A stretch of DNA of 64,000 nt from a virus (IMGVR_UViG_3300025316_001101), one strand, 5' to 3'; positions 3,161-48,835 are shown, counted from the stretch's first letter. Numbers and translations are program-made. Notes: generated from the sequence alone by a model not told the origin.

Positions 3161-3452
3161 ACCAATATACATAGTGTTCTTGGTATCAATTTTTGAAAGA
3201 AATCCGACAATTTTTCCAAAATAATTTTTCCAAGCCGTTTCAACTGATTTTCAGCCCATTTTGATGGGAGGACATTGACCAAACTAAATCAGCGTCAATC
3301 AGTGGTGATTTTGACTAATTTCCATTATGACGCCTTACATCCCGCTACCCTAAAGAGGTTTGCCCTGTTCATTCGGTCGTTCGCCTACGGCTCACTTTCT
3401 CACTCACAGAGCAAACAATCCTTTGGATTGTAGGGGTTTTACGGCGTCCGAG

Positions 3453-4166
3453 ATAAAACTACAACGAGCATTTTGTAAATATGGTGAGTCAGCATTTATG
3501 TTTGAAATAATAGAGCACACATCCGAAAACACATTGTTGGAAAGAGAACAATATTATTTGGACACTTACTGCGATCTTTATAATATTGGCAAACAAGCTA
3601 CGGGTGGAGACAATCTAACATCTCACCCCAACAGAGAAGACATAATCCGCAAAATGAGCGAAGGCTCTAAAAAAGCCAAATCCGAATGGACTGAAGAAAA
3701 ATGGATTAAATACAAGATGAACATTACTGGCAGCAAAAACCCAAATTATGGCAATCGCTGGGACTCCAGCCAACGTGCCAAAATGAGTGCCCGCCGAAAA
3801 GGAAGCAAGACAGACATTGAAACCAAAAATAAAATAAGTGCCGCTTCAAAAAAGATGTGGCAGAATGATGAATACAGACACAAAGAGGCAGAGAGAAGAA
3901 AAGGCAGTGGAAATTCATTCTACGGAAAACACCACACCATAACCTCAAAAGAAAAAATAAGCAGCGTCCAAAAAGATAGATTTTCCAAAATGACGCCAGC
4001 AGAAAAGAAAAAAGCAATTCCTAACATTAAAAAAATAAGCATCGACGGCGTTGTTTTCAACAGTGCCGTCGATGCTGCCAAATCACTTAACATATTAAGA
4101 TCTACGATCTGGTATAGGTTACACTCAAAGAACCCAAAATTTGCCCACTATCAATATATCGACTAA
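3453..4166 (+). pseudogene. 5'-truncated GIY-YIG homing endonuclease with NUMOD3 repeats
   Basis: IKLQRAFCKYGESAFMFEIIE...LLEREQYYLD...YNI is the C-terminal half of a GIY-YIG domain; SKNPNYGNRW and GNSFYGKHHT are NUMOD3-like; GIY/YIG motifs are absent and the track's 3360 start lies inside the IS left end. Confidence 0.75.
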
Positions 4167-5008
4167 ACAGCAATATCTGCCTTAATCGATGGATGGCACT
4201 GATAATTTTCCAGCACCGTATCCTCATACGTCCAGTCAAATATACTGGTAAAATTATCAGTTCTCACAGTCGGTAGCGGATACGGCTCTCTTTGAATCTG
4301 TGTCTTTGCGGCATCTATGTGATTTTCATATAGATGCCAATTACTTAGATAGCCAGTCAAAATTCCCTCTTTGTACCCAGTCTCTTTACACAACAAGTGC
4401 AAATACAAAGCATACGAACAAATATTATATGGGAATCCCAAAAAACTGTCTATAGACCGCATGAAGAAACACAAATTCAATTTATCTCCAAGCACAAATA
4501 CATGATGGAGGATATGACACGGAGGGAGGGCCATCTCTCCTGTTTGGCATGGATTCCAAGCCGATACCACCAATTGTCGATTACTCGGATTGGTTTTCAG
4601 TTGATCCACCACAAATTTTAACTGATCAACCCCTTGTGAGTTAAAATTCCTCCACTGATACCCATATACAAAACCTAAATCGGGTTCTTCTAGTTGAAAT
4701 TTCTTCTTCTCTTCGCCAGATAACCCGGCAGGTATCTTCGATGGGTTGCACCATTCATTCCATATGTTACACCCTCGCTCTTGCAACCATCGCTTGTCAG
4801 TCAAACCTTTGATAAAAAACTCCAGTTCTACCTTTATGGACTTCCAAGCCATCTTCTTAGTTGTCAACAGAGGAAATCCTTCAGACATATCGTGTCTAAT
4901 CATAGCGTGTGGGTAAGTATAAGCACTCACACCGGTTCGGTTGGGCACCAACTGCCCATGATCCAAAATCAATTTCAAACCATCAAGATATTGTTTCATT
5001 CTATTCAC
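4163..5008 (-). CDS. thyA: thymidylate synthase
   Basis: FPLLTTKK, YGYQWR, catalytic LPPCH, RSIDSFLGFPYN, HLYENH. Confidence 0.97.
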   Translation of the reverse strand: MNRMKQYLDGLKLILDHGQLVPNRTGVSAYTYPHAMIRHDMSEGFPLLTTKKMAWKSIKVELEFFIKGLTDKRWLQERGCNIWNEWCNPSKIPAGLSGEEKKKFQLEEPDLGFVYGYQWRNFNSQGVDQLKFVVDQLKTNPSNRQLVVSAWNPCQTGEMALPPCHILHHVFVLGDKLNLCFFMRSIDSFLGFPYNICSYALYLHLLCKETGYKEGILTGYLSNWHLYENHIDAAKTQIQREPYPLPTVRTDNFTSIFDWTYEDTVLENYQCHPSIKADIAV

Positions 5009-5014
5009 CTTTCA

Positions 5015-5236
5015 TTACTTTCGATATGCTCGTTGAGCACTCATTATTTGTCTACCCTGCTCTTCGGCAGAAAACGGATGTTTGTAATCACGATTGCGGT
5101 TTCTATCCAAAGAAAGTCTTTCAATATTTCTTTGACGATCTGCTTCTCGCTGTTCGTCAGAAACAACCTTTTTTGGTTTACGTTCTACCGTCTTGCTAAC
5201 CTTGTGTTTAGCCAGAGATTTTGCTGATTTCGTCAT
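5015..5236 (-). CDS. small basic hypothetical protein
   Basis: 73 aa ORF tiling the minus-strand operon with abutting start/stop. Confidence 0.55.
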   Translation of the reverse strand: MTKSAKSLAKHKVSKTVERKPKKVVSDEQREADRQRNIERLSLDRNRNRDYKHPFSAEEQGRQIMSAQRAYRK

Positions 5237-5454
5237 TATTTTCCTTTCATATGAGGGACATCGAATCTACGCTTGAATATCTTTTTACATGTGTCACATT
5301 GATATGACATCTGATCGTAATAACCATCTTTGCCTTGGCAAAGCTCTTGCATTTGAAAACTTAATTTACCACCACACGTGCATTCTGTCAAGGCGTGTGA
5401 ATGAACCATACATACATGCTCTAATATTTTTTGAAAATTTACATTATCATCCAT
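5236..5454 (-). CDS. small Zn-ribbon-like protein
   Basis: CTCGG...YQCDTCKK; operon tiling. Confidence 0.55.
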   Translation of the reverse strand: MDDNVNFQKILEHVCMVHSHALTECTCGGKLSFQMQELCQGKDGYYDQMSYQCDTCKKIFKRRFDVPHMKGK

Positions 5455-5704
5455 TCTGTTGTTTACTCTTTTCGAATGTTCCAGGAAACGGATAAGGCAT
5501 TACTGCAATAATGTGCGCCAAATCGCAACCCATTTCTTGACAATTATGTTTATGCTCTTCTCCAGTTCTTGTAATAGGCGGAGTTCCCAATATTACAATC
5601 TCACGACCATTGGTATAAGCTTCGATGGGATGCCAACCATCAGGCGGATTGCGTTCCATATTAAACTCTCCATCACTCTTCTTGTTGAGCACATTGTTCG
5701 GCAA
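5447..5704 (-). CDS. hypothetical protein
   Basis: 85 aa ORF, operon tiling; true start uncertain. Confidence 0.4.
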   Translation of the reverse strand: MPNNVLNKKSDGEFNMERNPPDGWHPIEAYTNGREIVILGTPPITRTGEEHKHNCQEMGCDLAHIIAVMPYPFPGTFEKSKQQNG

Positions 5705-5900
5705 GCATAGGCATTAACTTCTTGAGAGCTTGCGTTTCATCTGAGTTGAAAGTGAAACAAGATTCATGTCCATCTAAATACACCCTATAGTGCTCATATT
5801 TGCGGCTATAATCTGGCGGGGACAATTCCGCTAAAATTATACGATTAATATCCAAGGTCAAATTTTCCGTCAACTGCACATAATGTGGATTGTAATGCAT
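5673..5900 (-). CDS. hypothetical protein
   Basis: 75 aa ORF, operon tiling. Confidence 0.45.
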   Translation of the reverse strand: MHYNPHYVQLTENLTLDINRIILAELSPPDYSRKYEHYRVYLDGHESCFTFNSDETQALKKLMPMLAEQCAQQEE

Positions 5901-6789
5901 TTTGATTTTCCCCTATGGTATTATACTTGAGATAGTAATCTAACAAAAATTGACCACAACTAGCTCCTACGTCTAATCCCGGTGGTACGTAATATTCACA
6001 ATCAATTGCTTCGTCCCATAAAATATCCATAAATCTTTGGACACGACTATTTTCAGTGGTGTGATGATTGATGGTCTTGCGTTCATTATATTGCAGCAAC
6101 TTCACTGGGATACCCCTGCCCTGCAATGCATCTACAAGTGCATAAGCATTATCGTCACTGTCATTCACACCATCAATCATCGCATAATGTGCTTCAACCG
6201 AATTGCCGGTCAAGTTAGCGTAGAACTCCAATGCAGCAATGGCCGTGCGATATGGCAACGCCGCTGGCATCCATTCTTTACGAATGTCATCATCCGTAAA
6301 GTGCAAAGACAAATGCATCTTGAGATCGAACTTATGCGTTTGTACCATTTTGATTAAATGGAAAAAATTTGTCCAAGTGTGACTTGGAAGAAGCGTGGCA
6401 ATGGCAAATCTAATTAGAGAATACTCCTCCCTGAGCTTATGCATACTCCCAAGCACATGCCAAGTGTTGCACATGGGTTCACCACAGCCCATGTAAGATA
6501 TGAGAAGCATCCGTTTATTCTGCCCTAATTCGAGCAGCGCATGTGATGCCGAAACCACATCTATCATTTCTGTGGCTTCTAAATTTCTAGCCCGGATCTT
6601 GCCAATCGCATCTGTGGTATGACAAAATTCACAACCCAATGGGCACGCAGTCTGGCACGACACGCAAATTATATCTTTGCCGTCGTCCTTATTGATGTAG
6701 GCTGCCTCGGTAATGAGGCCATCCTTGAGTTGAAAAATGAATTTTACTGTCTTATCTACTTTTGAACTGATTTTATCAATCAGACGCAT
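5845..6789 (-). CDS. rlmN: RlmN/Cfr-family radical SAM RNA methyltransferase
   Basis: ICVSCQTACPLGCEFCHT (C118-equivalent plus CxxxCxxC), MGCGEP (cf. MGMGEP), LSLH, DVGASCGQF (C355-equivalent). Confidence 0.85.
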   Translation of the reverse strand: MRLIDKISSKVDKTVKFIFQLKDGLITEAAYINKDDGKDIICVSCQTACPLGCEFCHTTDAIGKIRARNLEATEMIDVVSASHALLELGQNKRMLLISYMGCGEPMCNTWHVLGSMHKLREEYSLIRFAIATLLPSHTWTNFFHLIKMVQTHKFDLKMHLSLHFTDDDIRKEWMPAALPYRTAIAALEFYANLTGNSVEAHYAMIDGVNDSDDNAYALVDALQGRGIPVKLLQYNERKTINHHTTENSRVQRFMDILWDEAIDCEYYVPPGLDVGASCGQFLLDYYLKYNTIGENQNALQSTLCAVDGKFDLGY

Positions 6790-6995
6790 TAACCCATTCC
6801 TTCAACTTTCGCAACTTTCCCGTTTTCAACACGCACATTCACACGATCCGTATCGTATTCACACGTGCCCACGAAAGCTTGCTGGTCCTGTTTAGTGATT
6901 CGGAGTCTGACCCCAACCTCTTCACAAAGCGTTCTTGCTTCTTTAACGGGCATTCCAATTAGCTTATTAATGTTTATCATATAACCTCTTTTCAT
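6789..6995 (-). CDS. potato-inhibitor-I / I78-like serine protease inhibitor
   Basis: KLIGMPVKEA...VGTCEYDTDRVNVRVENGKV..V..G aligns by eye with CI-2 VTMEYRIDRVRL. Confidence 0.65.
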   Translation of the reverse strand: MKRGYMININKLIGMPVKEARTLCEEVGVRLRITKQDQQAFVGTCEYDTDRVNVRVENGKVAKVEGMG

Positions 6996-7014
6996 GATCT
7001 AGCGTTATATATGC

Positions 7015-7269
7015 CTAAATTTGGAAATCAGCCGGGGATGTTTTAACCTGTTTGAGCAACTTAATAAGCTCCGTCATAGCCTTGGCTATTGTCTTAGCCT
7101 TCTCTTGATTTCTAGCCCCATAGACTTTAATGTCATAACCAGAAAGAGCTTGATCATCTATTTCTGTGCGGCAATAACTAGGAATGACTGTAAATTCAAC
7201 ACCTACGTTCTGCACCGTCTGTAAAAGATCTATGGGAATGGTCACATCCAAATTTTCCATTAAAATCAT
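7015..7269 (-). CDS. hypothetical protein
   Basis: 84 aa ORF, operon tiling. Confidence 0.5.
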   Translation of the reverse strand: MILMENLDVTIPIDLLQTVQNVGVEFTVIPSYCRTEIDDQALSGYDIKVYGARNQEKAKTIAKAMTELIKLLKQVKTSPADFQI

Positions 7270-7715
7270 ATCTCACCTTTTGCAAACTTCTCAAGATAGT
7301 CCAACCCCTCTTGATAGGTGGGGAAGATTACGTCAGCCATGTCTAAAATAAAAGCATGTTGATGAATGTTGCCCTCTTCCATGATAACAATCGTGTGTTT
7401 GCCCATATGATGTGCCCAAGCCATCTCAGCAACACTGCCTATGGATACCAATTTAGCACCCACAAGATACACAAACAGAATGTCGCAGGATTGAGTCATC
7501 CAGCGATCACGCTCTACAATAGCGTGATTTGTAGAAAGAGGGTTGTTATACCCATGTGCCTTAAACTCAATCTCATTACGAAGATAGCCCTTCCCACACA
7601 TGGGGAATAAGACTTCATAGCCCATTCCCTTGAGAATGTCCACGGTCTCCCTGTAATAGGTCGTTACTTCATCAAAACTACATCCAGAAATAGGTCGAGC
7701 GCAATATACTCGCAT
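7266..7715 (-). CDS. nucleoside 2-deoxyribosyltransferase / DNPH1(Rcl)-like nucleotide hydrolase
   Basis: MRVYCARPISG...VERDRWMTQSCDILFV...SIGSVAEMAWAHHMGKHTIV; likely start ATG 7715. Confidence 0.75.
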   Translation of the reverse strand: MRVYCARPISGCSFDEVTTYYRETVDILKGMGYEVLFPMCGKGYLRNEIEFKAHGYNNPLSTNHAIVERDRWMTQSCDILFVYLVGAKLVSIGSVAEMAWAHHMGKHTIVIMEEGNIHQHAFILDMADVIFPTYQEGLDYLEKFAKGEI

Positions 7716-7761
7716 GATTGGTTCCTTATCGAGAAAACGTACATAGAACTTCAATTCCACC

Positions 7762-7790
7762 AGCATAGCGAAATTGTAAAATAATGTCAA
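7762..7790 (-). promoter_or_regulatory. sigma70-type promoter heading the NDT-rlmN-thyA operon
   Basis: TTGACA-N17-TATGCT. Confidence 0.6.
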
Positions 7791-7797
7791 TAGAAAC

Positions 7798-7827
7798 GAA
7801 AACGCCCGGCCGTCGCCGGGCGTTTTC
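7798..7827. terminator. hairpin, CGCCCGGC family
   Basis: GAAAACGCCCGGC-cgtc-GCCGGGCGTTTTC. Confidence 0.7.
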
Positions 7828-8085
7828 CTCATTTATTCAGCCAATCCTAGCTGCACATATTTGGTAAATTCATCAGTGTGCCATGATCGATTGTTTACGT
7901 CGTCTTTTCATTTTCGACATTAAATCATTTTTTCTATAAAATCATAAATATCGACCGCCCACTCATTGGCTCTACCGTACCACCGACTATTACGTCGAGT
8001 GAACCTTACATAAAAAATTATTTTGACCATCTATCGGTCACTTACATCTTATCACGTCTATATAGAAGTGACAAGGGGTAAAATT

Positions 8086-9027
8086 ATGAATATATTGTTC
8101 ATCAGTCCTACTGGATTTTCTTCTCCAGGATTGTTCGAATGGATGCATTTTGAAGCATTTGGACATCACGTTGTCACAGATCCTAATCATGCAGACGTAG
8201 TGTTTTTTGATAGCCACAGTGGATTTGCGCCATATGATTGGAATATTCTCAATGTTGTGCTAACAAGAAAGATTCCCGTAGTCTACTTTGATGCCTTCGA
8301 TTATTGGGGCTGCAAAGACATGCAATCTTCATGGATTGGTTTCAATAACTGGAAGTCACTAGCGGAAAAAATAGCACAACATCAAGAATGGGCTGTATTC
8401 CTTGGTCGCACATTAAATGCCGGTACTTTGAAATTGTACTTCATGCGTAAAATGCAAGCCAGCCAACAATATCCTGATTTTGTGCATCCTCTCGAATATT
8501 GTCAATTTCAAGACCACATGTTTCAACCTATTACAAAAGAGCAGCTATTCTCTAGATCCAATGATATTTGTTTCATAGGAGCATCTAGTCCTTGGCGTGC
8601 CAATCTTGTATGCAGTTTACTCCAAGACAAAAGATTAAAAGTAGACTGTTTTTGGCCATTCGTAAGAATCTCGCATGATGAATGGCTCAATCGCCATCGC
8701 CAAGCCAAAATGTTTATCGAAGCAGATGGTGGAGGATTTGGTAGTGAACGACCATACCAACTCATCACTATCGCTCCCATGTTGCGACAACGCAATGACG
8801 AAAAGATGGCCTACCCCTGGACTGGAAATGTTAATTGTGTTGAAGTAGGTGACGTTTGGGGAGAAGTCACTACATCGGAAATTGAAAACATCATATCGAT
8901 TATCAGTGATTCAGATCGCCTTTACGAAATTTACATGAATGGCATCCAACACATGAATGCTAATTATTCAAAAACAGCCCGCACCACGTACATCTTAAAT
9001 ACAATGAAAGCCAATACGATATTGTAG
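8086..9027 (+). CDS. putative GT-B glycosyltransferase (exostosin/CgeB-like), paralog of 12037..13005
   Basis: MNILFISP..ADVVFFD; DICFIGASSPWRANL; ISHDEWLNRHRQAKMFI..DGGG; YPWTGNVNCV mirrors YPFEHGVNCI of the paralog. Confidence 0.6.
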   Translation: MNILFISPTGFSSPGLFEWMHFEAFGHHVVTDPNHADVVFFDSHSGFAPYDWNILNVVLTRKIPVVYFDAFDYWGCKDMQSSWIGFNNWKSLAEKIAQHQEWAVFLGRTLNAGTLKLYFMRKMQASQQYPDFVHPLEYCQFQDHMFQPITKEQLFSRSNDICFIGASSPWRANLVCSLLQDKRLKVDCFWPFVRISHDEWLNRHRQAKMFIEADGGGFGSERPYQLITIAPMLRQRNDEKMAYPWTGNVNCVEVGDVWGEVTTSEIENIISIISDSDRLYEIYMNGIQHMNANYSKTARTTYILNTMKANTIL

Positions 9028-9033
9028 AATCAT

Positions 9034-9744
9034 CTATATCTTCCTAATTGCTCCCACAAATAAAGGCAAATCCACACCTACAGCGTGCCAAGTATTATTG
9101 CCATTTTCCCCACCTATAGAACTCACAAATGCACGAATTTCACTAGCTGGCACCGCCACCTCCTGCCACTCACCGGTTGCTAATAATTCATTGTACACTT
9201 GTTGAGGTCCAACATACTGATTTCTAAAATCATGAAAAGCAATGATACCACCTACCGCCATTCTATTTCTAATTAATTCACATTCTGCTTTTACTAATTC
9301 ATATTGATGTTGGTCGCTATCTAAAAAAGCATATGCTATGTTATCTTGTATTAAAGGGATGGCGTGCAATGAATAATCTCCCATAAGATGCGGACTTACA
9401 TTTCCGTTACTTGCCTGCAAAACTCTATTACATACTTTGTCGCAGAAATCCACATCGTTCACATAAGCCCACGGCATATTTTCCGGCGATTCTTGGCACG
9501 CATGTTTCCACGCCTCTCGATTACTCAAATCGTAACAAGGATCAATTAAATGATGAGTTCTTCGCCCATTAAAACCACAACTTGCCGCAATAGAAGACTT
9601 GCCAGCATGACTTCCGGTTTCAAATGTTGAGCCTTGCGGAGCCTGTGAGGCAATGTTATAAATTGCTACCATTTCACAAACAGAAATAGCTCCTGGCGTG
9701 GCTTTGAATAATTCAATAATGTCTATTTTTGGTAAATTCATCAT
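9034..9744 (-). CDS. class I SAM-dependent methyltransferase (Methyltransf_24-like)
   Basis: FETGSHAGKS; YAFLDSDQHQYE...GGIIAFHDF. Confidence 0.75.
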   Translation of the reverse strand: MMNLPKIDIIELFKATPGAISVCEMVAIYNIASQAPQGSTFETGSHAGKSSIAASCGFNGRRTHHLIDPCYDLSNREAWKHACQESPENMPWAYVNDVDFCDKVCNRVLQASNGNVSPHLMGDYSLHAIPLIQDNIAYAFLDSDQHQYELVKAECELIRNRMAVGGIIAFHDFRNQYVGPQQVYNELLATGEWQEVAVPASEIRAFVSSIGGENGNNTWHAVGVDLPLFVGAIRKI

Positions 9745-10550
9745 GTTCCTTTTACGTCTGCTGGGTAGTGTATTCCTCCAGCTAATTTTACAAAATTCAA
9801 TATTGCCTCGTATGGCAATACATTCAAATGGCCCAACACTCCGACCCTATATGTGTCCCAACAGAAAATCATATATTTTTCTATTTCTATTGGAGGATAA
9901 AATACATTAGATCCACAAGTAATTCCCAATACATGTTCCATCCATGATAATCTTCGCCTTTTGTCGCCATACTTAGACCACATATAATCTGGATTTACTA
10001 AACATTTTTCAATTTCCGTAAAATCTAAAGTTGAATGATGGCATGCAAAAAATCTAGTAGAGGCCCACATGTGATCAAATTGCGGATCATTGACAGCATG
10101 AGGACTCCACGCACTAGGATACGATACAAATTTATAATTGTCTAATAAAGAAATAAGCCATTGAATATGCTGTGGACCGCTGGTAAATGCAGCACAGTCA
10201 GCATCAAAATGAAAAATATAATCACCTCTCGCCATCATAAACGCATGAAGATAATTAATATCATTGAATTTATCGAAAATTCCTCCGTGATAATATTTTG
10301 TATGCTTTCTCAACACTACTACATCTGCCACCTCTCGTAATGTTGCCAAAACATCTGGTGGCACGTTATTGTGCTCATCCACAAAAACAATTACTTCTAT
10401 ATCGAACCCATCTAAAAAAATTTTCTTGTTCTTAACTCCATCTGTTAAGAAATCTACAGATCGACACCCTTCATTCATTTTTGTAAATGCGGTCTCTTGT
10501 TGCTCAAATCCACTTCTGGTATCGCAGTTTATAATACATGATATCTTCAT
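9741..10550 (-). CDS. putative GT-A (GT2-like) glycosyltransferase
   Basis: KISCIINCDTR, IEVIVFVDE, DxD motif YIFHFDADC. Confidence 0.6.
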   Translation of the reverse strand: MKISCIINCDTRSGFEQQETAFTKMNEGCRSVDFLTDGVKNKKIFLDGFDIEVIVFVDEHNNVPPDVLATLREVADVVVLRKHTKYYHGGIFDKFNDINYLHAFMMARGDYIFHFDADCAAFTSGPQHIQWLISLLDNYKFVSYPSAWSPHAVNDPQFDHMWASTRFFACHHSTLDFTEIEKCLVNPDYMWSKYGDKRRRLSWMEHVLGITCGSNVFYPPIEIEKYMIFCWDTYRVGVLGHLNVLPYEAILNFVKLAGGIHYPADVKGT

Positions 10551-10553
10551 ATA

Positions 10554-13005: not shown

Positions 13006-13093
13006 TACTCTGTACCTTTCAACGTTTGTAAAAGCTAAATGTGAAATGTTGTGTGGCGTTCTATGTGCGTACTTTGGGAATATCGTTGGCTGT

Positions 13094-13252
13094 CTATGAT
13101 TTGCGTTTATCTTTCCGTTTCTCTTTCCGTTCATGCGGCCACTCCCGTCTCACTGGTTCACCAAACACGGGTCTGGCAAACACGGCTACGCAATTCGTGC
13201 CTGTTCCCTCTTCCCTTAATTTAAGCCACTCTTGAAATGTAGTGTGTTTCAT
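13094..13252 (-). CDS. 52-aa CTS-bearing peptide; not in ORF track
   Basis: Manual translation MKHTTFQEWLKLREEGTGTNCVAVFARPVFGEPVRREWPHERKEKRKDKRKS. Confidence 0.7.
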   Translation of the reverse strand: MKHTTFQEWLKLREEGTGTNCVAVFARPVFGEPVRREWPHERKEKRKDKRKS

Positions 13253-38977: not shown

Positions 38978-38984
38978 AATGTAT

Positions 38985-40511: not shown

Positions 40512-40513
40512 AT

Positions 40514-41299: not shown

Positions 41300-41361
41300 A
41301 TCTCTTGTATTTAGGCATCAGATCGTTTATAATTGCAGACAACAATTAACCAGGAGACCCC

Positions 41362-42261
41362 ATGATAAAAACACTCCCATTCAGACATGTCATTTGTGCG
41401 AGTCAATTCACAAGGGAGATTATTGACGACATTTTGTTACGGGCTAAAACTTTTCAAAATAATTCAAGTTCTGGGTTTTTATCAAAACGGCAAAAAGGCA
41501 TGGTTATGGCCACATATTTTGCCGAACCATCCACCCGCACTAGGCTGTCTTTTGAATCAGCTATGCAGCGGTTAGGAGGTAAAATCATCTCTATCGAGAA
41601 CGGATCTCTTTCTTCTTCCGAAGTAAAAGGGGAGCTTCTTGAGGATACCGTAAAAACCATTTCACAGTATGCTGATGTAATTGTTATTCGCCATCCACGT
41701 GATGGTGCTGCCCAAATTGCATCTGAATCATCCGATGTTCCAATTATTAATGCTGGCGATGGCGATGGAGAACATCCAACGCAAGCTCTTTTGGACTTGT
41801 ACACAATTCAACGAGAACGTGGTACAATAGATGGGGCCAACATTATATTTTTTGGCGACACCACTAAAGCACGCACCGTAAAATCGCTTACAGCCATGCT
41901 GAAGAATTTTAAGGACGTGATTGTGGATATTATCGATCCATATGCTGGTACAATTAATAATTGGGAGCATTTGCTTAATGAAAAATTGCCAGCGGCCGAC
42001 GTAGTGTACATTACAAGATTACAACGAGAGCGATGGACACCAGGGTTCGTAAATTTACAAAAAGTGTGTTTTGGTCAAGAACAATTGAATCTTATGAAAC
42101 AAAACGCTATGGTTTTACATCCTTTGCCAAGAACCAATGAATTAGATCACAGAATTGATTCTGATCCAAGAGCAGCCTATTGGAAGCAGGTAAAGAATGG
42201 CATGTTTTTGCGAATGGCTCTTATTAGTATGATGCAATTTGATACACCTAGCGATATATAA
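41362..42261 (+). CDS. pyrB: aspartate carbamoyltransferase catalytic chain
   Basis: FAEPSTRTRLSFE, YADVIVIRH, PIINAGDG.GEHPTQALLDLYTI, YITRLQRER, LHPLPR, RMAL; SD CAGGAG. Confidence 0.95.
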   Translation: MIKTLPFRHVICASQFTREIIDDILLRAKTFQNNSSSGFLSKRQKGMVMATYFAEPSTRTRLSFESAMQRLGGKIISIENGSLSSSEVKGELLEDTVKTISQYADVIVIRHPRDGAAQIASESSDVPIINAGDGDGEHPTQALLDLYTIQRERGTIDGANIIFFGDTTKARTVKSLTAMLKNFKDVIVDIIDPYAGTINNWEHLLNEKLPAADVVYITRLQRERWTPGFVNLQKVCFGQEQLNLMKQNAMVLHPLPRTNELDHRIDSDPRAAYWKQVKNGMFLRMALISMMQFDTPSDI

Positions 42262-42279
42262 TGACATCGAAGGAGTATC

Positions 42280-42639
42280 ATGAAACATTTTATAATTTGG
42301 TTAGAAGATAGACAAGCAAATGAAATTCGGGACGCCGTAATATCGAAGTTGCGATCCGACATGGGAATCGATGACGATGATGAAATTACTCAAATGAAAA
42401 CGGCTGATTTGAGTAGTGATGCTCAAGAAGAAATCTTGAAGATCGGATCGGTGATGGATAAGATAGATCCAACACAAGCCGATGCTATTAAAGACTTTAT
42501 GAGTAAATCAGACACAACAGTAGGCACTTTAATTGATAGGATAAACAGTTCTAAACCAAATGCTCCAATGGCCGAACCTCCCGATAGTAATCCGGCCATT
42601 CAACCTCAACAATCACAGAACTTAGGTCAGGGAATATAG
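42280..42639 (+). CDS. acidic hypothetical protein, CTS-like N-terminus
   Basis: MKHFIIWLEDRQ; SD AAGGAG. Confidence 0.7.
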   Translation: MKHFIIWLEDRQANEIRDAVISKLRSDMGIDDDDEITQMKTADLSSDAQEEILKIGSVMDKIDPTQADAIKDFMSKSDTTVGTLIDRINSSKPNAPMAEPPDSNPAIQPQQSQNLGQGI

Positions 42640-42692
42640 AAATTGATAACTCAAACACTATAATACTTATATGGTTTTATAGGAGGGTTATC

Positions 42693-43760
42693 GTGGCTAT
42701 AAAAGTAATAATAAAAATTACCAAGGATTGGCTGGAGAGCGAGTACATTACTAAAGACAGAAGTATGCAAGATATCGCATTGGAAGTAGGTTGTGCTTAT
42801 TCTTCTATTAATAGATATGTCAAATTATTTGGCATACATCCAAAAACTAATGGACAGCATAAAAAGGTAGCTGTACAGGGTATTCCATTTGGCAATTGGA
42901 CGCCAATTAAAGAAGTTGCTCCTGCAAAATCCGGCCATACCAAATGGTTATGTGAATGCAAATGCGGTCAGCAATTAGAAATAGAACACAACGCATTGGC
43001 AAGTGGTAAAAGGATACAATGTATAGCGTGCGGTGGCAAAGCAAGACGTGTTAAGGATAGATTGTCAAATGTCTTTTGGAAGCAAATCAGAAGTGGCGCA
43101 GCCAATAGGGGATGGGAGTTCGACATAATACCAAAGCAGGCTTATGATTTATTGTTAAAGCAAGAATTCAAATGTGCCTTAACAGGAATTTCTATATGCA
43201 TTGCAGATACCGTGACTGAACACAATCATGGGAAAACCACTGCGTCATTAGACCGCATTCAATCTAATGTAGGTTACTGTGTTGAAAACATACAGTGGGT
43301 ACACAAGCACGTAAATCGGATTAAATATACATGGTCTAATGATGAATTCATTGGCTTTTGTACTTTGATAGCGGATTATCATCCGTCGCATCATGATATT
43401 GCAGAGGAAACAAATGTAATCAAAACCGCAAATTGGAATTTGATTAGGATGACAGCAAGGCAAAGAGGGTGGGAATATGACTTAGACATGGATTGGGCAT
43501 GGCAGTTATATTTATCACAAGGCAAAAGATGTGCCCTTTCAGGATTGGAATTATCATTTCCTAAAAGTGTATACTCCTATCAAAAGACAAGAGATGGCAA
43601 CGCTTCGCTGGATAGAATAGATAGTTCTAAGGGATACGTAAAAGGAAATGTGCAATGGGTCACAAGATTGATCAATAAAATGAAATCATGTTTCTCAGAT
43701 GATGAGTTCAAGAGGATTTGTACATTAGTTATGGATTATAATCATGATAAAAAAATTTAG
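42693..43760 (+). CDS. HNH-type homing endonuclease with tandemly duplicated nuclease domain
   Basis: Two copies of KCAL[TS]G...ASLDRI.S..GY...N[IV]QWV...[VI]N..K; N-terminal HTH-like and W.C.C.CG Zn motif. Confidence 0.8.
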   Translation: MAIKVIIKITKDWLESEYITKDRSMQDIALEVGCAYSSINRYVKLFGIHPKTNGQHKKVAVQGIPFGNWTPIKEVAPAKSGHTKWLCECKCGQQLEIEHNALASGKRIQCIACGGKARRVKDRLSNVFWKQIRSGAANRGWEFDIIPKQAYDLLLKQEFKCALTGISICIADTVTEHNHGKTTASLDRIQSNVGYCVENIQWVHKHVNRIKYTWSNDEFIGFCTLIADYHPSHHDIAEETNVIKTANWNLIRMTARQRGWEYDLDMDWAWQLYLSQGKRCALSGLELSFPKSVYSYQKTRDGNASLDRIDSSKGYVKGNVQWVTRLINKMKSCFSDDEFKRICTLVMDYNHDKKI

Positions 43761-44358
43761 TCAGTGGGTAGAAAACAAACAACAAGAAAAGATATTCATT
43801 ATACTTCGTGGGCCTCCGGGGTCTGGAAAATCAACGAAGATCAATGCATTGCTTGCTCAATACGGAGGAGATTACGATCATGTATTTTCGACCGATAATT
43901 ATTTTATCCCTGTATCACAACAAAAGAAGCGACGTGGTGAGCAGATTTCTACTAGTGATGAATATCAAGAGTATCGATCAAACTGGAAGGCAGAGAAATT
44001 AGGTGCTGCTCACGCACATAATTTTCAAGAGTTTCAATATGCCGTAGATCTTGGTGTTACGCCATTAGTATTAGATAATACCTGTATTGTTTCCAGAGAT
44101 TTTCGTCACTACGTCGAGTATGCTGATAAAGCAGGTTATACGGTTAAAATTGAAGAACCTGATTCTCCTTGGTGGAATGAATATCGCCCATATTTAGCTG
44201 ATAAAAAGCTTGATCCAAAAAAGCTAGAAGAATTTGCTAAAATACTCGCCAAACGTAACACGCATGGCGTTCCGTTGGACACTATTCAGAAAATGATCAC
44301 ACGTTGGCAGGATAAGATTGATGTGGATGAACTTTTAGGAAAAAAGCCTAAACAATAA
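43744..44358 (+). CDS. P-loop kinase, N4BP2/AAA_33 polynucleotide-kinase-like, CTS-like N-terminus
   Basis: MIKKFSQWVE; ILRGPPGSGKST, FSTDNYF, LVLDNT, EPDSPWW, RNTHGVP.DTIQKM. Confidence 0.8.
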   Translation: MIKKFSQWVENKQQEKIFIILRGPPGSGKSTKINALLAQYGGDYDHVFSTDNYFIPVSQQKKRRGEQISTSDEYQEYRSNWKAEKLGAAHAHNFQEFQYAVDLGVTPLVLDNTCIVSRDFRHYVEYADKAGYTVKIEEPDSPWWNEYRPYLADKKLDPKKLEEFAKILAKRNTHGVPLDTIQKMITRWQDKIDVDELLGKKPKQ

Positions 44359-44541
44359 AACTACATCGCCAATCAATAGTGCTATCATTATTAAGAACCA
44401 AGGTATAGCAACCACCAATGGTTTGTATCCAGCTTTTGGACTGTCCCACATCATTGCCAACATTGGTGTTACCGACACCATGATGAATAATACGGATGTG
44501 ATCATTAATATAATCCCTAATACCCCAAAGATAGTCATCAT
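44335..44541 (-). CDS. small membrane protein (2 TM)
   Basis: Two hydrophobic stretches. Confidence 0.55.
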   Translation of the reverse strand: MMTIFGVLGIILMITSVLFIMVSVTPMLAMMWDSPKAGYKPLVVAIPWFLIMIALLIGDVVLLFRLFS

Positions 44542-44545
44542 TTAA

Positions 44546-44962
44546 TTATCCTCCAAAATTCACACACCAATAAACTGTACCATCAGCAGCAACGGCAATT
44601 CCAAATCCAACATGAGTGAAATTTCTATTCAATATATTTGCTCGGTGACCACTAGAATTTATCCAACTTCGTAGAACCTCGGCTTCGGTACGTTGGCCAC
44701 AGGCAATATTTTCACCACCCGTTCTCCACGTTCTCATTATTTTGTTTAGAGATTGATGGGTTAGGTTTCTGTTGGCAACCATCCAATTCGCATGAGCTTG
44801 GGCTATTGCGTCTAAGTTCCGGTCCCCGACCAGTTTTTGTATTCTTTGCTGTTCTCTTGGGGTATTGTGGGCAATCAGGATCGTGGCCTCTACATCCTGA
44901 GCGAGAGCGTGGGTGACCTGTGCCACCAATATGGCAATTGCAAGTATTATGGTTTTCATCAA
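44546..44962 (-). CDS. secreted CAP (SCP/PR-1) domain protein
   Basis: Signal peptide; AQAHANWM..LTH, GENIA.GQ, W.NSSGHRANIL, VGFG, YW..NF. Confidence 0.88.
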   Translation of the reverse strand: MMKTIILAIAILVAQVTHALAQDVEATILIAHNTPREQQRIQKLVGDRNLDAIAQAHANWMVANRNLTHQSLNKIMRTWRTGGENIACGQRTEAEVLRSWINSSGHRANILNRNFTHVGFGIAVAADGTVYWCVNFGG

Positions 44963-46401
44963 AAGTCGATCTCATCCTTTACTATGACTTCATGCCCTTC
45001 CTGCGTGAGTATCTTAACACGTTTCTTGGAGTGCTCAAGCAGATAATCGTTGATCTTAAATATAAAGTCATAATAATGAAGAATTTCTTTGTCGTCGGCT
45101 GTTCTTAATCCTCTACCCATCCTTTGAATGATCTGGTGATCGGCCTGCCCACCTGCCGCATTCAATAAATTATGACAGTAGACGTTAATGCCAGCGTTAA
45201 ATATGCCATGTGTAGCAATTGCGATCAGATTCTTTTTAGACTTTTGTAATTCGCCAATAATATATTTGCGGGTTTGTAGATTATCTTTTCCTTGCACCCA
45301 CAACGATCCAGGTATCATGTTGGCCAATGTGTCACCGTGAGCTAATCGCTCTACGAGGATTAATGTACGTCCTTTTAGTCCTTTCACCAATCGTGTTACC
45401 AATTGATGAAACTCAAAGTTTTCAGCTATACCGTGTGTAACGGCATCTATGTAGATGTCATATGGTAGCTGCGGAGTATTGATTGGATAGAAGATACACT
45501 GAGACGCCGAGAGGATGTTTCTATCCTGTAGTTTCTTGGTGGTTAATACACCTGTGTCACCGGCCGACTTTGCTTTTACAATTGGGCCAAAGTATCCTTT
45601 GACTGCATACTTTTGTGTCTTGTGTGTACCGCCAAATTTGAAGGGGGTAGCACTTACGGCGATTCTAACCGAACATGACTTCATTTTTCCATAAAATTTT
45701 CTCGGCACTTTGCTCATCATATCATGGATTTCATCCACAATAACACATCGAATACTTGGCAAAAGCTTTTCAATTTTGTGTAATGACTGAACCGTAGCAC
45801 ATGTAAACATGTTCGGTTCTTTGTATTTGTCATACAATCTACCAACGTTCTTAAATCCCCACTTCATCATTTCATCATAATTTTGCTCGACAAGGCTCTT
45901 CTTGTTGGCTAGAATGAGTGTGGGGGTGTTTTCTGGAAGGCACTTTAGGATGCCTATCATAATGTTGGTCTTGCCAGCCGATGTTGGAGCCTGAATTACT
46001 CCACGCTTGTTTTGAATGGCATGATTTATTAACTCTACTTGATAGTCATATAAAGTTACTTTCTTCTGCCCTTTTGGAGTCCATTGGTCAAAAAAGTGTT
46101 CATCAACAGACTCGAATCGAAACTTTAGAGGATCACGATTATCCTCAATGGTGTACTCAACCTTCCAAAGATTGAGAGCCATTTCGATTTCTGGAAGGAG
46201 TCCGGTCAAGAATTTGCCGGAATCTTTTTTGAAGAAGTCAATATAACCATCCCACAACTTTTGCTTGTAGAGGCGACTGTGAAAGTATCCACGTTCACGA
46301 AATCGCAAAGCCCGCCAAAGTTGCAGGAGAAGATTTTCATTTCCAGTTAATAATTGACCAAAGCAATTATCAACCCGTATATGCGCAAGTTTATCACCCA
46401 T
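44959..46401 (-). CDS. uvsW: UvsW-like SF2 DNA helicase
   Basis: LYDYQ, QAPTSAGKT, VIVDEIH, VSATP, IATHGIFNAGIN, QRMGRGLR, YYDF. Confidence 0.85.
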   Translation of the reverse strand: MGDKLAHIRVDNCFGQLLTGNENLLLQLWRALRFRERGYFHSRLYKQKLWDGYIDFFKKDSGKFLTGLLPEIEMALNLWKVEYTIEDNRDPLKFRFESVDEHFFDQWTPKGQKKVTLYDYQVELINHAIQNKRGVIQAPTSAGKTNIMIGILKCLPENTPTLILANKKSLVEQNYDEMMKWGFKNVGRLYDKYKEPNMFTCATVQSLHKIEKLLPSIRCVIVDEIHDMMSKVPRKFYGKMKSCSVRIAVSATPFKFGGTHKTQKYAVKGYFGPIVKAKSAGDTGVLTTKKLQDRNILSASQCIFYPINTPQLPYDIYIDAVTHGIAENFEFHQLVTRLVKGLKGRTLILVERLAHGDTLANMIPGSLWVQGKDNLQTRKYIIGELQKSKKNLIAIATHGIFNAGINVYCHNLLNAAGGQADHQIIQRMGRGLRTADDKEILHYYDFIFKINDYLLEHSKKRVKILTQEGHEVIVKDEIDF

Positions 46402-46457
46402 GTTATAACACCAACCTTATATCGGCATTATAACTTATTTTTAGCTAGAAGTCCACA

Positions 46458-46862
46458 TCATTTGACGGGTTTGGGGTGTTCTTCTGGGTTATCTTTTTCA
46501 AAAGTATAGGTCATTAATGGGGTGACTAGACTTAATCGGTTTTGTTCAAACTTGTTTAGCAAAAATTCGGCTAAAGCATGTATGTAGACAAAGATTTCCT
46601 GGTTCGTTTTGGGAAATCGTGGATAGTTGATAGAAGCTATTTCGAAGCCATCTTCCACATAATCCCTAACCACATAGGTGGTATTTGTAACTGTTACCGA
46701 CACTAGCTCGGCTGCATCCAATATGCGTTCTACTTCATGTCTCTTTTGGAATTCGCCAATGGCCGCTATCACGTCATGATCAAAGAATTTGCTGCCATTG
46801 TAGCCACGGACGGAACCAATGTATATCTTTGCCCAATAAGTTTGTACCGTGAATTCTTTCAT
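46458..46862 (-). CDS. hypothetical protein
   Basis: Likely start MKEFTVQ. Confidence 0.55.
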   Translation of the reverse strand: MKEFTVQTYWAKIYIGSVRGYNGSKFFDHDVIAAIGEFQKRHEVERILDAAELVSVTVTNTTYVVRDYVEDGFEIASINYPRFPKTNQEIFVYIHALAEFLLNKFEQNRLSLVTPLMTYTFEKDNPEEHPKPVK

Positions 46863-46915
46863 ATATTTTCTCCTAACAGATATAATAACAAGTAACAGTT
46901 TCTTAGTCAAGACCG

Positions 46916-46922
46916 CTAAATA
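46916..46922 (+). promoter_or_regulatory. T4-late-promoter-like box
   Basis: CTAAATA 4 nt before ATG 46927. Confidence 0.5.
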
Positions 46923-46926
46923 AAGT

Positions 46927-47295
46927 ATGAATTTCAAAGAATGGTTAGCATTGGATTACTTGGTCGAAGCTTTCGGACAAGAAGAAATAGACTCCCACAA
47001 GGTCTTAGATGGGAAGTGGGAGCCCCCACTCAACCAAATTGCTAATGAGCATAATTTCTATTTTAACTCTGAACCCGACCCTCAAAAAGAATGTAATGGT
47101 CGTCAATGCTATAAATTACATGTTAGTTGCAATTATCATGGCGGAGAAGGAGATGTGGCAAACATTAGTTTCAGACATGCTTACTCTGGTTATGGTGATA
47201 GATTTAAGTACGGTGCCTCTACGGAAGAAAAGGTTTTGCAAGAAAAGATTGGTAAGGATGTAGTCAATTACCCCTACCCTAAAGAGGTTCAATAG
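46927..47295 (+). CDS. CTS-bearing hypothetical protein, 3' end interrupted by IS element 2; paralog of 49623..49919
   Basis: MNFKEWLALD; last codons (VNYPYPKEVQ) come from the IS right end. Confidence 0.7.
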   Translation: MNFKEWLALDYLVEAFGQEEIDSHKVLDGKWEPPLNQIANEHNFYFNSEPDPQKECNGRQCYKLHVSCNYHGGEGDVANISFRHAYSGYGDRFKYGASTEEKVLQEKIGKDVVNYPYPKEVQ

Positions 47296-48835
47296 TGGTT
47301 TTCATTCGCTTACGCTCACTCGCTCCACTATTGAACTTTCCTTCGGAAAGTAGGGGCTTGGATTGATTAAAAATGTTTTCAACCAACCTCTTACAAGAGA
47401 AAGAATGGATTTTATCCAACCTAATTCTTGAAGGCGTATTGACAACGCCTCTACTGAGTTGAGTCCGAAGACCCTTCCCGCTACCTGATTTCAGCATAAT
47501 TCCCAATGCACCGTGCATATCAGCATTGATAATAATACCTGTACTTGACTTGAACAAACCACGCTTTATTCTTCGTCCTAAATACTCTTCGTGATGACAC
47601 ATTGGTTCATTTGCTAAATGGTCGCACTTTGAAGTATATGCTTCGTTGATGGATTTATATTCAATTCCATATAACTCACACTTACTTCGCAATTTCCAAG
47701 CAAACTTACCAAACGGAAGCATTACAAAGTTTTGGTTGTTTTTGTCTCCAATGTGACTTCCATCTTGAGCGTGCCAACCTTCACCAATTACCACTTTGCC
47801 AATTTGATGTTTAATACAAGTTTGAACAATCAAATTGACATATTGATTGAGATGTTCGTTCAATCTACGATTTCTTTTATCCTCCATTGTTCGCATACGC
47901 TTACTTGATTTTTGTCCTTGTGTTTCCAGTATTGATTGTAGTCTTGCTCTCTCCTTATTATACCATTGATTTATGGATTTCATTCTACGCCCGTCTAAGA
48001 TAAACGAGTGTCCAGTTTTACTGTCAAGGCAAGTGGCGAAATTACTTACGCCAGGATCAATACTCAATACACGACTTTTTTCAAGTTTTGGATGTTCTTG
48101 TTCAACTTCATACACAAACTCAATCTCAAAATGCTCTGCTTTACTCTTTGGAAGAATGCGAACCTCTTTTATCCGATTGCCTTTGACATTCGGAGGGATT
48201 TGATACACAAACTTCTTGAACTTATACTTACTTCGTAAATCTTTTGGCACTGCTACACTAAAATGTTCAACACAATTTCGCTGTGGAAATATACAGAGGA
48301 AATGTCCATCTTTGGGAAGAAAATGAGGTTTTTTGACTGGCTTGTTGTAATTGCCATGTTGTTTCTTTTTCAAAAGTCCAAAGAAAGAACGAAAACAGCG
48401 TTCTACTATTTTCATTGTTTGTTGAGAGGCATCAGTTCCAAGTGCCTTATATTCAGGTCTTACTTTCATTACATGGTACGCACTGTTGTAGGTCAAAAAT
48501 TCTCCGCATTGACCAAAGTGATTGTTAGTTTCCCACAATGTAGAATTGAAAAGATTTTTGCTACGGCGACACATATCACGCCAAAACCTAAATTGGCTTC
48601 TATCCAACTTCATCTTATTCTTTTGGACTTTGAACATCTCATACTTATATAGTATGATTGCTCATAATTTTTTTATGAATTCTAAATTATTTTGAAATTA
48701 TTTTTATTATGGCGGCTTACATCCCACTACCCTAAAGAGGTTCGCTCTGTTCGTTCGGTCGTTCGCCTACGGCTAACTTACTCACTCACAGAACAAACAT
48801 TCCTTTGGAATGTAGGGGTTTCACGCCGCCCCCAG
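47263..48835 (-). mobile_element. non-autonomous IS200/IS605-family element 2 (TnpB only)
   Basis: Right end ...CTCTTTAGGGTAGGGGTAATTGAC; left end homologous to element 1 and preceded by TTCAT; removing it rejoins the host ORF as KDV-MNF-stop. Confidence 0.85.
47279..48637 (-). CDS. tnpB: RNA-guided endonuclease TnpB (IS1341-like clade)
   Basis: SKNLFN, IKEVRILP, RuvC-I LSIDPGVSN, VVIG, NNQNFV..PF, EAYTSKC, RIKRGLF, INADMHGA. Confidence 0.92.
   Translation of the reverse strand: MFKVQKNKMKLDRSQFRFWRDMCRRSKNLFNSTLWETNNHFGQCGEFLTYNSAYHVMKVRPEYKALGTDASQQTMKIVERCFRSFFGLLKKKQHGNYNKPVKKPHFLPKDGHFLCIFPQRNCVEHFSVAVPKDLRSKYKFKKFVYQIPPNVKGNRIKEVRILPKSKAEHFEIEFVYEVEQEHPKLEKSRVLSIDPGVSNFATCLDSKTGHSFILDGRRMKSINQWYNKERARLQSILETQGQKSSKRMRTMEDKRNRRLNEHLNQYVNLIVQTCIKHQIGKVVIGEGWHAQDGSHIGDKNNQNFVMLPFGKFAWKLRSKCELYGIEYKSINEAYTSKCDHLANEPMCHHEEYLGRRIKRGLFKSSTGIIINADMHGALGIMLKSGSGKGLRTQLSRGVVNTPSRIRLDKIHSFSCKRLVENIFNQSKPLLSEGKFNSGASERKRMKTTIEPL

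Follow-up and report, generated by a model that had tools for sequence, protein, structure and literature searches.

Two elements with extended ends

The ends of IS200/IS605 transposons are, in textbook form, simple imperfect hairpins that are read by a Y1 transposase on single-stranded DNA. The 64,000-nucleotide stretch of viral DNA analysed here (IMGVR_UViG_3300025316_001101, hereafter the window) carries two TnpB-encoding elements in which three of the four end hairpins hold a further 62–71 nt at the same site, and so poses the question of whether this extra sequence is foreign to the ends or belongs to them, and what it might do there.

Both elements lie on the minus strand and lack tnpA. 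Element 1 (1762–3452; bounds from alignment of genome copies, conserved target and tail, and Pfam TnpB domains) comprises a left end (LE1), a small ribbon-helix-helix (RHH)-like ORF, tnpB1 (1767–2999, 410 aa; Pfam HTH_OrfB_IS605, OrfB_IS605 and Cas12f1-like_TNB) and a right end (RE1). Element 2 (47263–48835), of another TnpB clade, comprises LE2, tnpB2 (open frame 47279–48637, 452 aa, identified by Pfam domains) and RE2. In Pfam both TnpBs carry OrfB_IS605 and zinc-ribbon (TNB) domains, and they read towards the right end. The 259-kb phage record contains six TnpB genes in all. The two of the window can scarcely be aligned with each other (BLASTP E = 0.001), despite which LE1 and LE2 share 86% identity over ~125 nt. 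The RHH-like ORF (2996–3172, 58 aa; Pfam RHH_9 E = 3.6e-4, below the family cut-off) is kept in three tnpA-less copies and occupies the place of tnpA in the complete copy. RNA-library contigs cover parts of tnpB (among them 1837–2039) and of the RHH region and leave the left end uncovered; ends and strand are not shown by these contigs.

The elements belong to the IS605 group of the IS200/IS605 family. Subterminal hairpins at both ends replace terminal inverted repeats, and the left and right hairpins of one element share stem type and loop, including a sixth copy with the loop CTTGTG. Elsewhere in the phage record, just beyond the window, a sister copy that shares the long left end contains a Y1 TnpA gene (Pfam Y1_Tnp E = 3e-35 at G000:C1:885-1253); PDB relatives of the phage TnpA include 2ec2, 2xm3 (ISDra2) and 2vhg/2a6m (IS608), and TnpA homologues adjoin long left ends in at least seven other viral loci. 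TTTAT, TTTAC, TTCAC or TTCAT stands directly 5' of every left end, the flanks being otherwise unrelated; as judged from the flanks of copies, insertion occurs 3' of a fixed target of 4–5 nt that doubles as the TnpB TAM, without target duplication. In IS608 a guide tetranucleotide 5' of the hairpin foot specifies the cleavage site (PMC3201880), and the same code is obeyed by 35 of 36 left ends (TTAT/AAAA, TTAC/AAAG, TCAC/GAAG, TCAT/GAAA) and 19 of 20 right ends (TCAC/GAAG, TGAC/CAAG).

The long ends are predicted to fold into a four-way junction

The sequence CCCTAAAGAGG occurs on the plus strand at 1776–1786, 3348–3358, 47277–47287 and 48730–48740, once in each of the four ends (six matches with at most one mismatch, four of them exact, against a chance expectation of 0.59). 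The coordinates of these ends in the initial annotation are correct to the base, as are its sizes for the inserts in LE1 (3359–3429, 71 nt), LE2 (48741–48811, 71 nt) and RE2 (47288–47349, 62 nt) and its description of RE1 as a plain 8-bp hairpin (1770–1792). Comparison of genome copies and the guide code define RE1 (1762–1796) as guide GAAG (1793–1796), the hairpin with its TCTTTAG loop, and the tail TAATTCAC (1762–1769), ending in the predicted right cleavage site TCAC; its closing pair covaries in the sister copy (C-G to G-C).

On the folding strand, which is the top, TnpB-sense strand (the minus strand of the window), the helices P2, P3, P4 and P5 of the long ends meet without any unpaired base and are therefore predicted to form a perfect four-way junction. 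P2 (6 bp, CCCCTA/TAGGGG) and P5 (2 bp, CC/GG, loop TCTTTAG) together rebuild the ordinary 8-bp hairpin, with the same stem and loop as RE1 and the Helicobacter IS605 left end, and P3 and P4 are two added arms in its 5' strand, between base pairs 6 and 7. The long left end is thereby a structurally novel form of a transposon end that is otherwise well known.

LE1 as a whole spans 3329–3452, with an outer helix P1 (3443–3448 with 3329–3334) and the guide AAAA (3437–3440). Its junction (3341–3436) consists of P2 (3431–3436 with 3341–3347, one bulged C), P3 (3416–3430), P4 (3359–3415) and P5 with its loop (3348–3358); the sense strand, folded as DNA at minimum energy, yields precisely these four helices, and the covariance-model match scores 97 bits. 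Directly 5' lies the target/TAM TTTAT (3453–3457), kept 5' of all type-1 copies. Left cleavage is predicted at its final tetranucleotide, TTAT, which is 16 nt from the hairpin foot and matches the AAAA guide under the IS608 code. LE2 (48711–48835; 93 bits) has the same parts, supported by folds and covariation: P1 (48825–48830 with 48711–48716), P2 (48813–48818 with 48723–48729), P3 (48798–48812), P4 (48741–48797) and P5 with loop (48730–48740), preceded by the target/TAM TTCAT (48836–48840), in which the predicted cleavage site TCAT fits the guide GAAA (48819–48822). P1 covaries between the two (GACGCC/GGCGTC in LE1, GGCGGC/GCCGCC in LE2). The long right end RE2 (47263–47360; 97 bits, again with folds and covariation) comprises guide CAAG (47357–47360), P2 (47351–47356 with 47271–47276), P3 (47336–47350), P4 (47288–47335), P5 with loop (47277–47287) and the tail TAATTGAC (47263–47270).

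Covariation of the small hairpin, listed for the window in the initial annotation, is real and extends to the junction as a whole. Across 25 distinct sequences 95.2% of cells are paired and both sides have changed in 12 of 24 pairs; none of 500 shuffles did as well, and slid controls reached at most 51% paired. The two arms have lengths of 4–9 bp and of 7 bp up to ~57 nt, with pairing always kept, and the junction-proximal bases are almost invariant (TA/C at P2-P3, TTT/AAA at the P4 foot). Since the arms vary in both sequence and length and keep pairing alone, they are not the sequence-specific recognition part, a role that probably falls to the P2/P5 stem and TCTTTAG loop, also present in plain ends. 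The proposal that the inserts are a recognition module for a Y1 transposase acting in trans therefore divides: the hairpin that bears them is of the TnpA subterminal type and its flanks obey the IS608 cleavage-site/guide code, and the sister copy encodes a Y1 TnpA, but the arms themselves are free in sequence and length.

Folding on one particular strand had been argued from C-A mismatches that become G-T wobbles on the TnpB strand, which is true of the window copies and weak family-wide (16 G-T versus 6 A-C cells in P4, with independent events about equal). The long arm provides stronger evidence. The P4 interior is 74% purine and repeats two G.A steps followed by two Watson-Crick pairs, and this purine ladder of tandem G.A steps is strand-specific and typical of stable single-stranded DNA. 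In DNA folds the sense strand, which forms all four helices, is 2–3 kcal/mol better than the opposite strand. The arms commonly end in triloops (GAA, AAA, GTA) and in the dominant GCGNAGC cap, with a GNRA-type loop, GTAA, in RE2 and in L137; 19 of 29 distinct P4 arms fit GCGN(N)AGC, compared to 0.84 in shuffles. This is the consensus of mini-hairpin DNA (GCGNAGC / GCGNNAGC), which melts at ~70–76 C (reviewed in PMC13037366).

Known structured elements were also considered. ARAGORN found no tRNA in the window and P5 has only 2 bp, so a tRNA-like element was rejected; an IStron or group I intron core in the left end was rejected as well, since Rfam matched nothing, even with E values up to 5, and the left end is only ~125 nt long.

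Distribution among left and right ends

The shared extended end architecture proposed in the initial annotation reaches far beyond the window. Seven ends in the phage record (259 kb) carry the junction, and other viral contigs yielded ~34 distinct versions of it, across several subfamilies with different loops and targets. In the loci that we read, all left ends of ~16 complete or miniature elements are long, although the search motif that produced this sample is itself specific to the long form, and 'always long' is valid only for elements so found; right ends are mostly plain, mostly with an all-G/C stem. Three gene-less copies from related viral contigs (L018, L126, L148) retain the long left end together with the omegaRNA/right end. 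Among right ends, one type has a left-end-like 5' arm from which the module is precisely absent, and the module of RE2 is missing from the 55%-identical TnpB2 paralogue in the same genome, in which the last ~27 codons of tnpB2, running through the RE2 insert, are unconserved too. Long right ends carry the left-end type of P2, which suggests that the left-end hairpin was copied into them; exchange of this kind is documented by fused left/right 'solo' forms, which violate the right-end code and are probably dead.

What the added arms may do

On balance we favour the view that the inserts belong intrinsically to the subterminal transposase hairpin of this phage-borne IS605-type group, are conserved there and are not foreign sequence, and that the arms serve as a folding anchor. 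With P2 stacked on P5, TnpA would see its usual binding site, and arms built from stable single-stranded-DNA motifs (GNA triloops, tandem G.A steps, GCGNAGC mini-hairpins) could nucleate the left-end hairpin and keep it formed for TnpA on single-stranded, SSB-coated phage DNA. Coupling of the top strand to the lagging-strand template has been described for the IS200/IS605 family (PMC5027513); on such a template the left end would be exposed first and would have to stay folded until the right end, ~1.6 kb away, became single-stranded. In most right ends the all-G/C stem may provide the stability. The left-end form would have been acquired by a small number of right ends, RE2 included, with the arms as an extra domain in the last stem of the omegaRNA, which TnpB evidently tolerates. 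For RE2 such a domain was suggested in the initial annotation and is consistent with position, the insert lying in the last stem before the guide and the tnpB2 frame reading through RE2. We infer the anchoring and timing roles from the stable motifs, and they do not explain why the left end lacks the G/C-only stem of the right. More tentatively, the arms might be a purpose-built single-stranded-DNA device of SSB-resistant mini-hairpins and G.A ladders that keeps the left TnpA site folded, and perhaps holds up lagging-strand synthesis, for as long as the right end is not yet exposed, adapts peel-and-paste to fast phage forks and can be copied into a right end as an omegaRNA domain; this extended version is possible, though we would not call it probable.

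That the insert is instead a separate miniature mobile element invading IS end hairpins, as once proposed, would fit its presence in ends of unrelated TnpB clades and its absence from some same-clade right ends (the TnpB2 paralogue, and the right-end type from which it is precisely missing). Free copies would then be expected to exist, and there are none, either across the genome or in related loci totalling ~350 kb: covariance-model matches were confined to seven IS ends in the 259-kb record and to IS ends in 40 related loci, and the conserved P4 core was never seen except within an end. The insert always sits between the same two flanking base pairs, has no ends of its own and duplicates no target, and the left-type P2 and the 'solo' forms favour hairpin copying, so that this reading is already largely refuted and hardly credible. 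Tolerated, functionless growth of the hairpin loop is only a little less improbable: that the hairpin works unexpanded is clear from plain right ends and from the IS605 left end, which is plain as well, and some copies have very short arms, but compensatory changes keep pairing in ~34 distinct versions from several subfamilies, stable special motifs are strongly enriched, and the expansion is kept in every left end found in the sample drawn with the long-form motif.

Two functional alternatives deserve more weight, though we consider both unlikely. The junction might work as RNA, as a structured left-end leader or processing signal of read-through or element transcripts and, in RE2, as a functional extra omegaRNA domain. 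The folding strand is the tnpB sense strand, identical helices would form in RNA, RE2 is positioned inside the last omegaRNA stem, RNA folds of the ends have z-scores of -4.4 to -6.5, and GTAA caps occur in RE2 and L137. However, a promoter-like palindrome of the RHH/tnpB unit lies downstream of the left-end junction, which places the junction outside that transcript, DNA-type motifs (the triloops and GCGNAGC caps) dominate, and Rfam gave no match. Slightly less probable still is a docking site for an accessory protein, either the RHH-like protein or one that acts in phage replication or recombination and recognises branched DNA, which would regulate excision or recruit machinery. Four-way junctions are classical protein targets, the junction-proximal bases are almost invariant and the RHH-like ORF is kept in three copies; against this, complete tnpA copies have the same junction without that ORF, arm length varies more than two-fold, and no candidate partner was identified.

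If, as the folding-anchor reading holds, the canonical hairpin is kept as one coaxial stack in the junction, then the TnpA site accommodates a large branched extension, and this phage-borne group offers a natural system for studying how the ends of single-strand transposons stay folded in replication intermediates that are coated with SSB. It also adds a natural setting in which mini-hairpin motifs and tandem G.A ladders appear under selection. The extended, device-like version, if true, would make the arms a timing or chaperone module for transposition at fast phage forks. RE2-type elements are also of interest for TnpB engineering, since they indicate that a two-arm insertion of 63 nt can be accommodated in the final stem of the omegaRNA.

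Comparison with known systems

Helicobacter pylori IS605 (the copy in Helicobacter phage FrGC43A, KX119195.1) resembles these elements in its divergent tnpA and tnpB, a TnpA ~45% identical, a left-end hairpin with the same TCTTTAG loop and 3' flank ATGAATGC, and a right-end hairpin followed by the same tail TAATTCAC. Its left end is a plain 8-bp hairpin, however, to which the phage group adds P3 and P4 and, in some subgroups, P1; the covariance model scores at most 16 bits on IS605 ends. With the 'peel and paste' elements IS608 and ISDra2 the group shares a TnpA related in sequence to the solved enzymes, the guide pairing rule, a left site placed 15–19 nt (in IS608, 19 nt) upstream of the foot and a right site a few nt 3'; it differs in that the right site is 8 rather than 10 nt from the foot and in the predicted four-way junction of the left hairpin.

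The related gene-less viral copies, which keep the long left end and the right end, recall PATEs and other miniature IS200/IS605 derivatives, although the finding here concerns end architecture and not miniaturisation. Mini-hairpin DNA is known from the single-strand origins of phage G4 and ssiA and from phage N4 early promoters (PMC13037366). Most of our P4 arms match its consensus sequence, and both settings involve single-stranded DNA that must stay folded despite SSB; here, however, the motif caps an arm of a transposon end rather than forming part of an origin or promoter. As in TnpB omegaRNAs generally, RE1 and RE2 are found at the 3' ends of their tnpB genes, and the scaffold would stop at the transposon boundary, a fit by position, whereas the last stem of RE2 bears the two-arm expansion of 63 nt.

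Elements and their ends

All four TnpB element ends of the initial annotation lie at the positions it gave, with the motif CCCTAAAGAGG occurring exactly on the + strand at 1776, 3348, 47277 and 48730 (six matches in the window at ≤1 mismatch, against 0.59 expected). Between CCCTAAAGAGG and GTAGGGG the left ends LE1 and LE2 and the right end of Element 2, RE2, contain the reported insert of 71, 71 and 62 extra bases respectively; the right end of Element 1, RE1, is indeed a plain hairpin. Both flanking genes encode TnpB, of different clades as claimed and almost unalignable with each other, although LE1 and LE2 are 86% identical. Alignment of genome copies placed Element 1 at 1762-3452 and Element 2 at 47263-48835, both on the minus strand. 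On the sense strand of tnpB, conservation begins directly after TTTAT (TTCAT for Element 2) and terminates in the tail TAATTCAC or TAATTGAC. An ORF adjoining LE1 (3360-4166, + strand) resembles I-TevI-type homing endonucleases solely in their DNA-binding parts (NUMOD3, I-TevI_DNA-bd), and no GIY-YIG catalytic domain was reported for it.

The window comes from a 259-kb viral record (G000:C1), of which it shows the minus strand; the public runs with Element 1 are metagenomes from freshwater and lakes. Six TnpB genes, all in one orientation and spread along 208 kb of the record, form six elements, four of type 1 (Element 1 and its relatives) and two of the Element 2 clade. Their shared orientation may be due to the lagging-strand insertion bias known for the IS200/IS605 family, or to co-orientation with phage genes. 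A complete IS605-type copy lies just outside the window (G000:C1:676-2581), comprising a long left end, tnpA (141 aa; frame G000:C1:879-1304), tnpB (404 aa, its product sharing 48% identity with TnpB1) and a right end of the plain form. The Y1 transposase of this type-1 copy, encoded divergently from tnpB, matches Pfam Y1_Tnp and has ISDra2 and IS608 TnpA among its solved relatives; it is the likely transposase source for the copies lacking tnpA. The other three type-1 copies have in place of tnpA a 58-aa ribbon-helix-helix (RHH)-like ORF (window 2996-3172, minus strand; homologous places near 178.5 kb and 207.5 kb of the record), which matches Pfam RHH_9 with E = 3.6e-4, short of that family's cut-off. 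A short palindrome centred on the sequence of a TATATAA box, which could be a promoter with operator, lies just upstream of this ORF and likewise upstream of tnpB2 and the sixth tnpB. The sixth element (G000:C1:133300-134800), whose TnpB is 55% identical to TnpB2, has a long left and a plain right hairpin, both with the loop CTTGTG rather than TCTTTAG; the record, whose completeness is estimated at half, yielded no TnpA to match it.

A predicted four-way junction on the sense strand

On the tnpB sense strand the long end is modelled as a perfect four-way junction, with zero unpaired bases between its parts. The foot stem P2 pairs CCCCTA with TAGGGG (with one bulged pyrimidine in many left ends), P3 is the small hairpin noted initially plus the C and G flanking it, P4 is a long arm, and P5 (CC/GG) closes the seven-base loop TCTTTAG. 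Folding the LE1 sense strand with DNA parameters gave exactly these four helices. In a MAFFT alignment of 25 distinct sequences, standard pairs occupy 95.2% of cells and both-sided changes affect 12 of 24 pairs (78 cells), a level equalled in none of 500 shuffles; sliding the partners by 1-3 columns reduces pairing to 31-51%. The covariation first noted in the small hairpin is real, and the P3 stem covaries across the family. P3 varies from 4 to 9 bp, and the shortest P4 is a 7-bp hairpin and the longest an arm of 57 nt; both are paired in every version. An RNA minimum-energy fold pairing the small-hairpin loop with the TCTTTAG region was rejected, as GTA, GCTA and longer P3 loops cannot pair in this way while the P3 stem covaries. 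Rfam returned no relevant family at gathering or permissive thresholds, and ARAGORN no tRNA in the window.

On the sense strand, purines make up 74% of the P4 interior, where two G.A/A.G oppositions and then two Watson-Crick or wobble pairs recur as a unit, a pattern that fits tandem sheared G.A pairs. The complementary strand would hold pyrimidine-pyrimidine mismatches, and the structure therefore belongs to the sense strand. The argument for strand-specific folding from wobble pairs holds in the window copies but is weak family-wide, G-T and A-C events having about the same frequency there. TnpA acts on the top strand (PMC5027513), and in the long ends this is the sense strand. P4 is capped by GCGNAGC or GCGNNAGC in 19 of 29 distinct arms, against 0.84 in shuffles; this is the consensus of "mini-hairpin DNA", which melts near 70-76 C and occurs at the single-strand origins of phage G4 and ssiA (PMC13037366). 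The loops of P3 are mostly triloops (GAA 11, AAA 6, GTA 4). As sequence features, the purine ladder, caps and triloops favour a single-stranded-DNA structure over RNA.

The junction as a transposase site

In IS608, a guide tetranucleotide lying immediately 5' of the foot of the hairpin reads each cleavage site, cleavage position 2 pairing with guide position 1, position 1 with guide 2 and position 4 with guide 4 (PMC3201880). Applying this rule with P2 as the foot, we found the predicted tetranucleotide 15-19 nt upstream in 35/36 left ends (TTAT with AAAA, TTAC with AAAG or AACG, TCAC with GAAG, TCAT with GAAA), and the predicted final four bases in 19/20 right ends (TCAC with GAAG, TGAC with CAAG). 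This covariation of target and guide is independent evidence for use of the ends by a Y1 transposase with P2 as its hairpin.

Asymmetry of left and right ends

By our reading of these loci, collected with a motif of the long form, about 16 elements (complete or miniature) all combine a long left with a plain right end, and the stems of plain right ends are all G/C. Rare right ends of the long form (RE2 with its L137 homologue, L120/L134 and L143, all viral loci outside the window except RE2) bear a P2 of left-end type. RE2 is long, whereas the right end of a 55%-identical paralogue of TnpB2 is plain; the TnpB2 frame enters the RE2 insert for 27 extra codons, which are unconserved. Fused "solo" forms of approximately 100-130 nt (L069:10961-11130(-); L135 near 2875-2990(+); L019:6493-6600(+)) join a left-end 5' half, one junction and a right-end 3' tail. 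Their guide tetranucleotide fits the left target and not the right cleavage site, and they are therefore probably dead recombination products. The solo forms, together with a hybrid plain right end, indicate that left and right hairpins recombine; given also the left-end P2 of long right ends, we read the latter as left-end hairpins copied into the right end.

Distribution

The extended end architecture proposed from the window was found well beyond it, two motif scans of IMG/VR recovering about 34 distinct versions, of several subfamilies, in many viral contigs; several adjoin TnpA homologues of 49-76% identity as well as TnpB. A covariance model built from 25 long-end sequences, the check initially suggested, recovered exactly seven long ends from the phage record, with no other match above 21 bits. 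On 40 related loci it matched transposon ends only, including diverged subfamilies with the loops CTTCAG, CTTGTG, CTTGG and CTTGAG and other P2 sequences. Gene-less PATE-like miniatures occur in three related viral contigs (L018, L126:517-860 and L148:353-700); they retain the long left end and the plain right end together with a remnant of the omegaRNA region. In L134 (4615-4735(-) next to 4825-4930(+); also in L120) a diverged element with its own long left end, codirectional tnpA and tnpB and a 31% identical TnpA is inserted immediately beside another element's long right-end remnant, a nested or abutting arrangement.

An exact 18-mer scan of 185,579 prokaryote species genomes gave six chance matches, in coding sequence only, a result that bears on that 18-mer and not on diverged relatives. 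The closest TnpA homologues from cellular MAGs are 63% identical or less, and the best TnpA matches among 401 genomes from a single candidate phylum were 34-39% identical and without a long-form end. The first 14-mer scan of viral contigs mostly picked up a coding motif and a putatively unrelated family of marine hairpins. In about 50 viral loci of marine origin (e.g. L008, L010, L038) an abundant hairpin family has CCTACCC and GGGTAGG on either side of a T-rich stretch together with the same CTCTTTAG core; tblastn found no TnpA or TnpB in these loci.

Possible function of the arms

The arms P3 and P4 are a conserved structure of the sense strand, placed inside the TnpA hairpin of a family for which a transposase is present. 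They would speed the folding of the left-end hairpin and keep it formed on single-stranded DNA coated with SSB. On a template of lagging-strand synthesis, the 5' (left) end would be exposed before the right and would have to persist until both are single-stranded, which would explain reinforcement as a left-end feature. At RE2 the arms may be carried along as an expansion of the omegaRNA.

The initial annotation also considered the insert as a separate mini-element targeting IS end hairpins, which is contradicted by the lack of any free copy in the phage record and 40 related loci and by an insertion site that is always the same. Neutral expansion of the hairpin is likewise contradicted, by the covariation and the enrichment of stable motifs. 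An RNA role at the left end is unlikely, the junction lying upstream of the RHH/tnpB unit's promoter-like palindrome. Contigs from public RNA libraries, which carry no strand or end information, partly cover tnpB and the omegaRNA and RHH regions and leave the left end uncovered; at window 1837-2039 (the tnpB1 3'/omegaRNA region) they derive from two peat metatranscriptome studies (95-99% identity), with contigs from both starting at 1837, although contig starts need not be true ends. The arms may alternatively be a docking site for a protein.

Comparison with IS605

Full-text literature searching turned up nothing relevant on three-way or four-way junctions in IS200/IS605 ends, and the long left end seems to be an undescribed architecture on IS605-type ends as set against Helicobacter IS605, the named element compared. 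P2 (6 bp) and P5 (2 bp) together equal the 8-bp stem of plain hairpins, with an identical loop, and the loop-closing pair switches from C-G to G-C in the plain right end of a sister copy and is therefore a real pair. By these features and those shared with Helicobacter IS605, the long form is a derived IS605-type hairpin, two arms having been inserted in its 5' strand with base pairs 6 and 7 on either side. Stacked four-way junctions allow two helices to stack coaxially, and P2 stacked on P5 would keep the canonical hairpin as a single continuous helix. The TnpA of Helicobacter IS605 is approximately 45% identical to the phage TnpA, the element's right end shares the TAATTCAC tail, and its left end shares with the phage group the TCTTTAG loop followed by ATGAATGC; however, that left end is a plain 8-bp hairpin, so that the closest named element lacks P3 and P4 where the phage elements have them.
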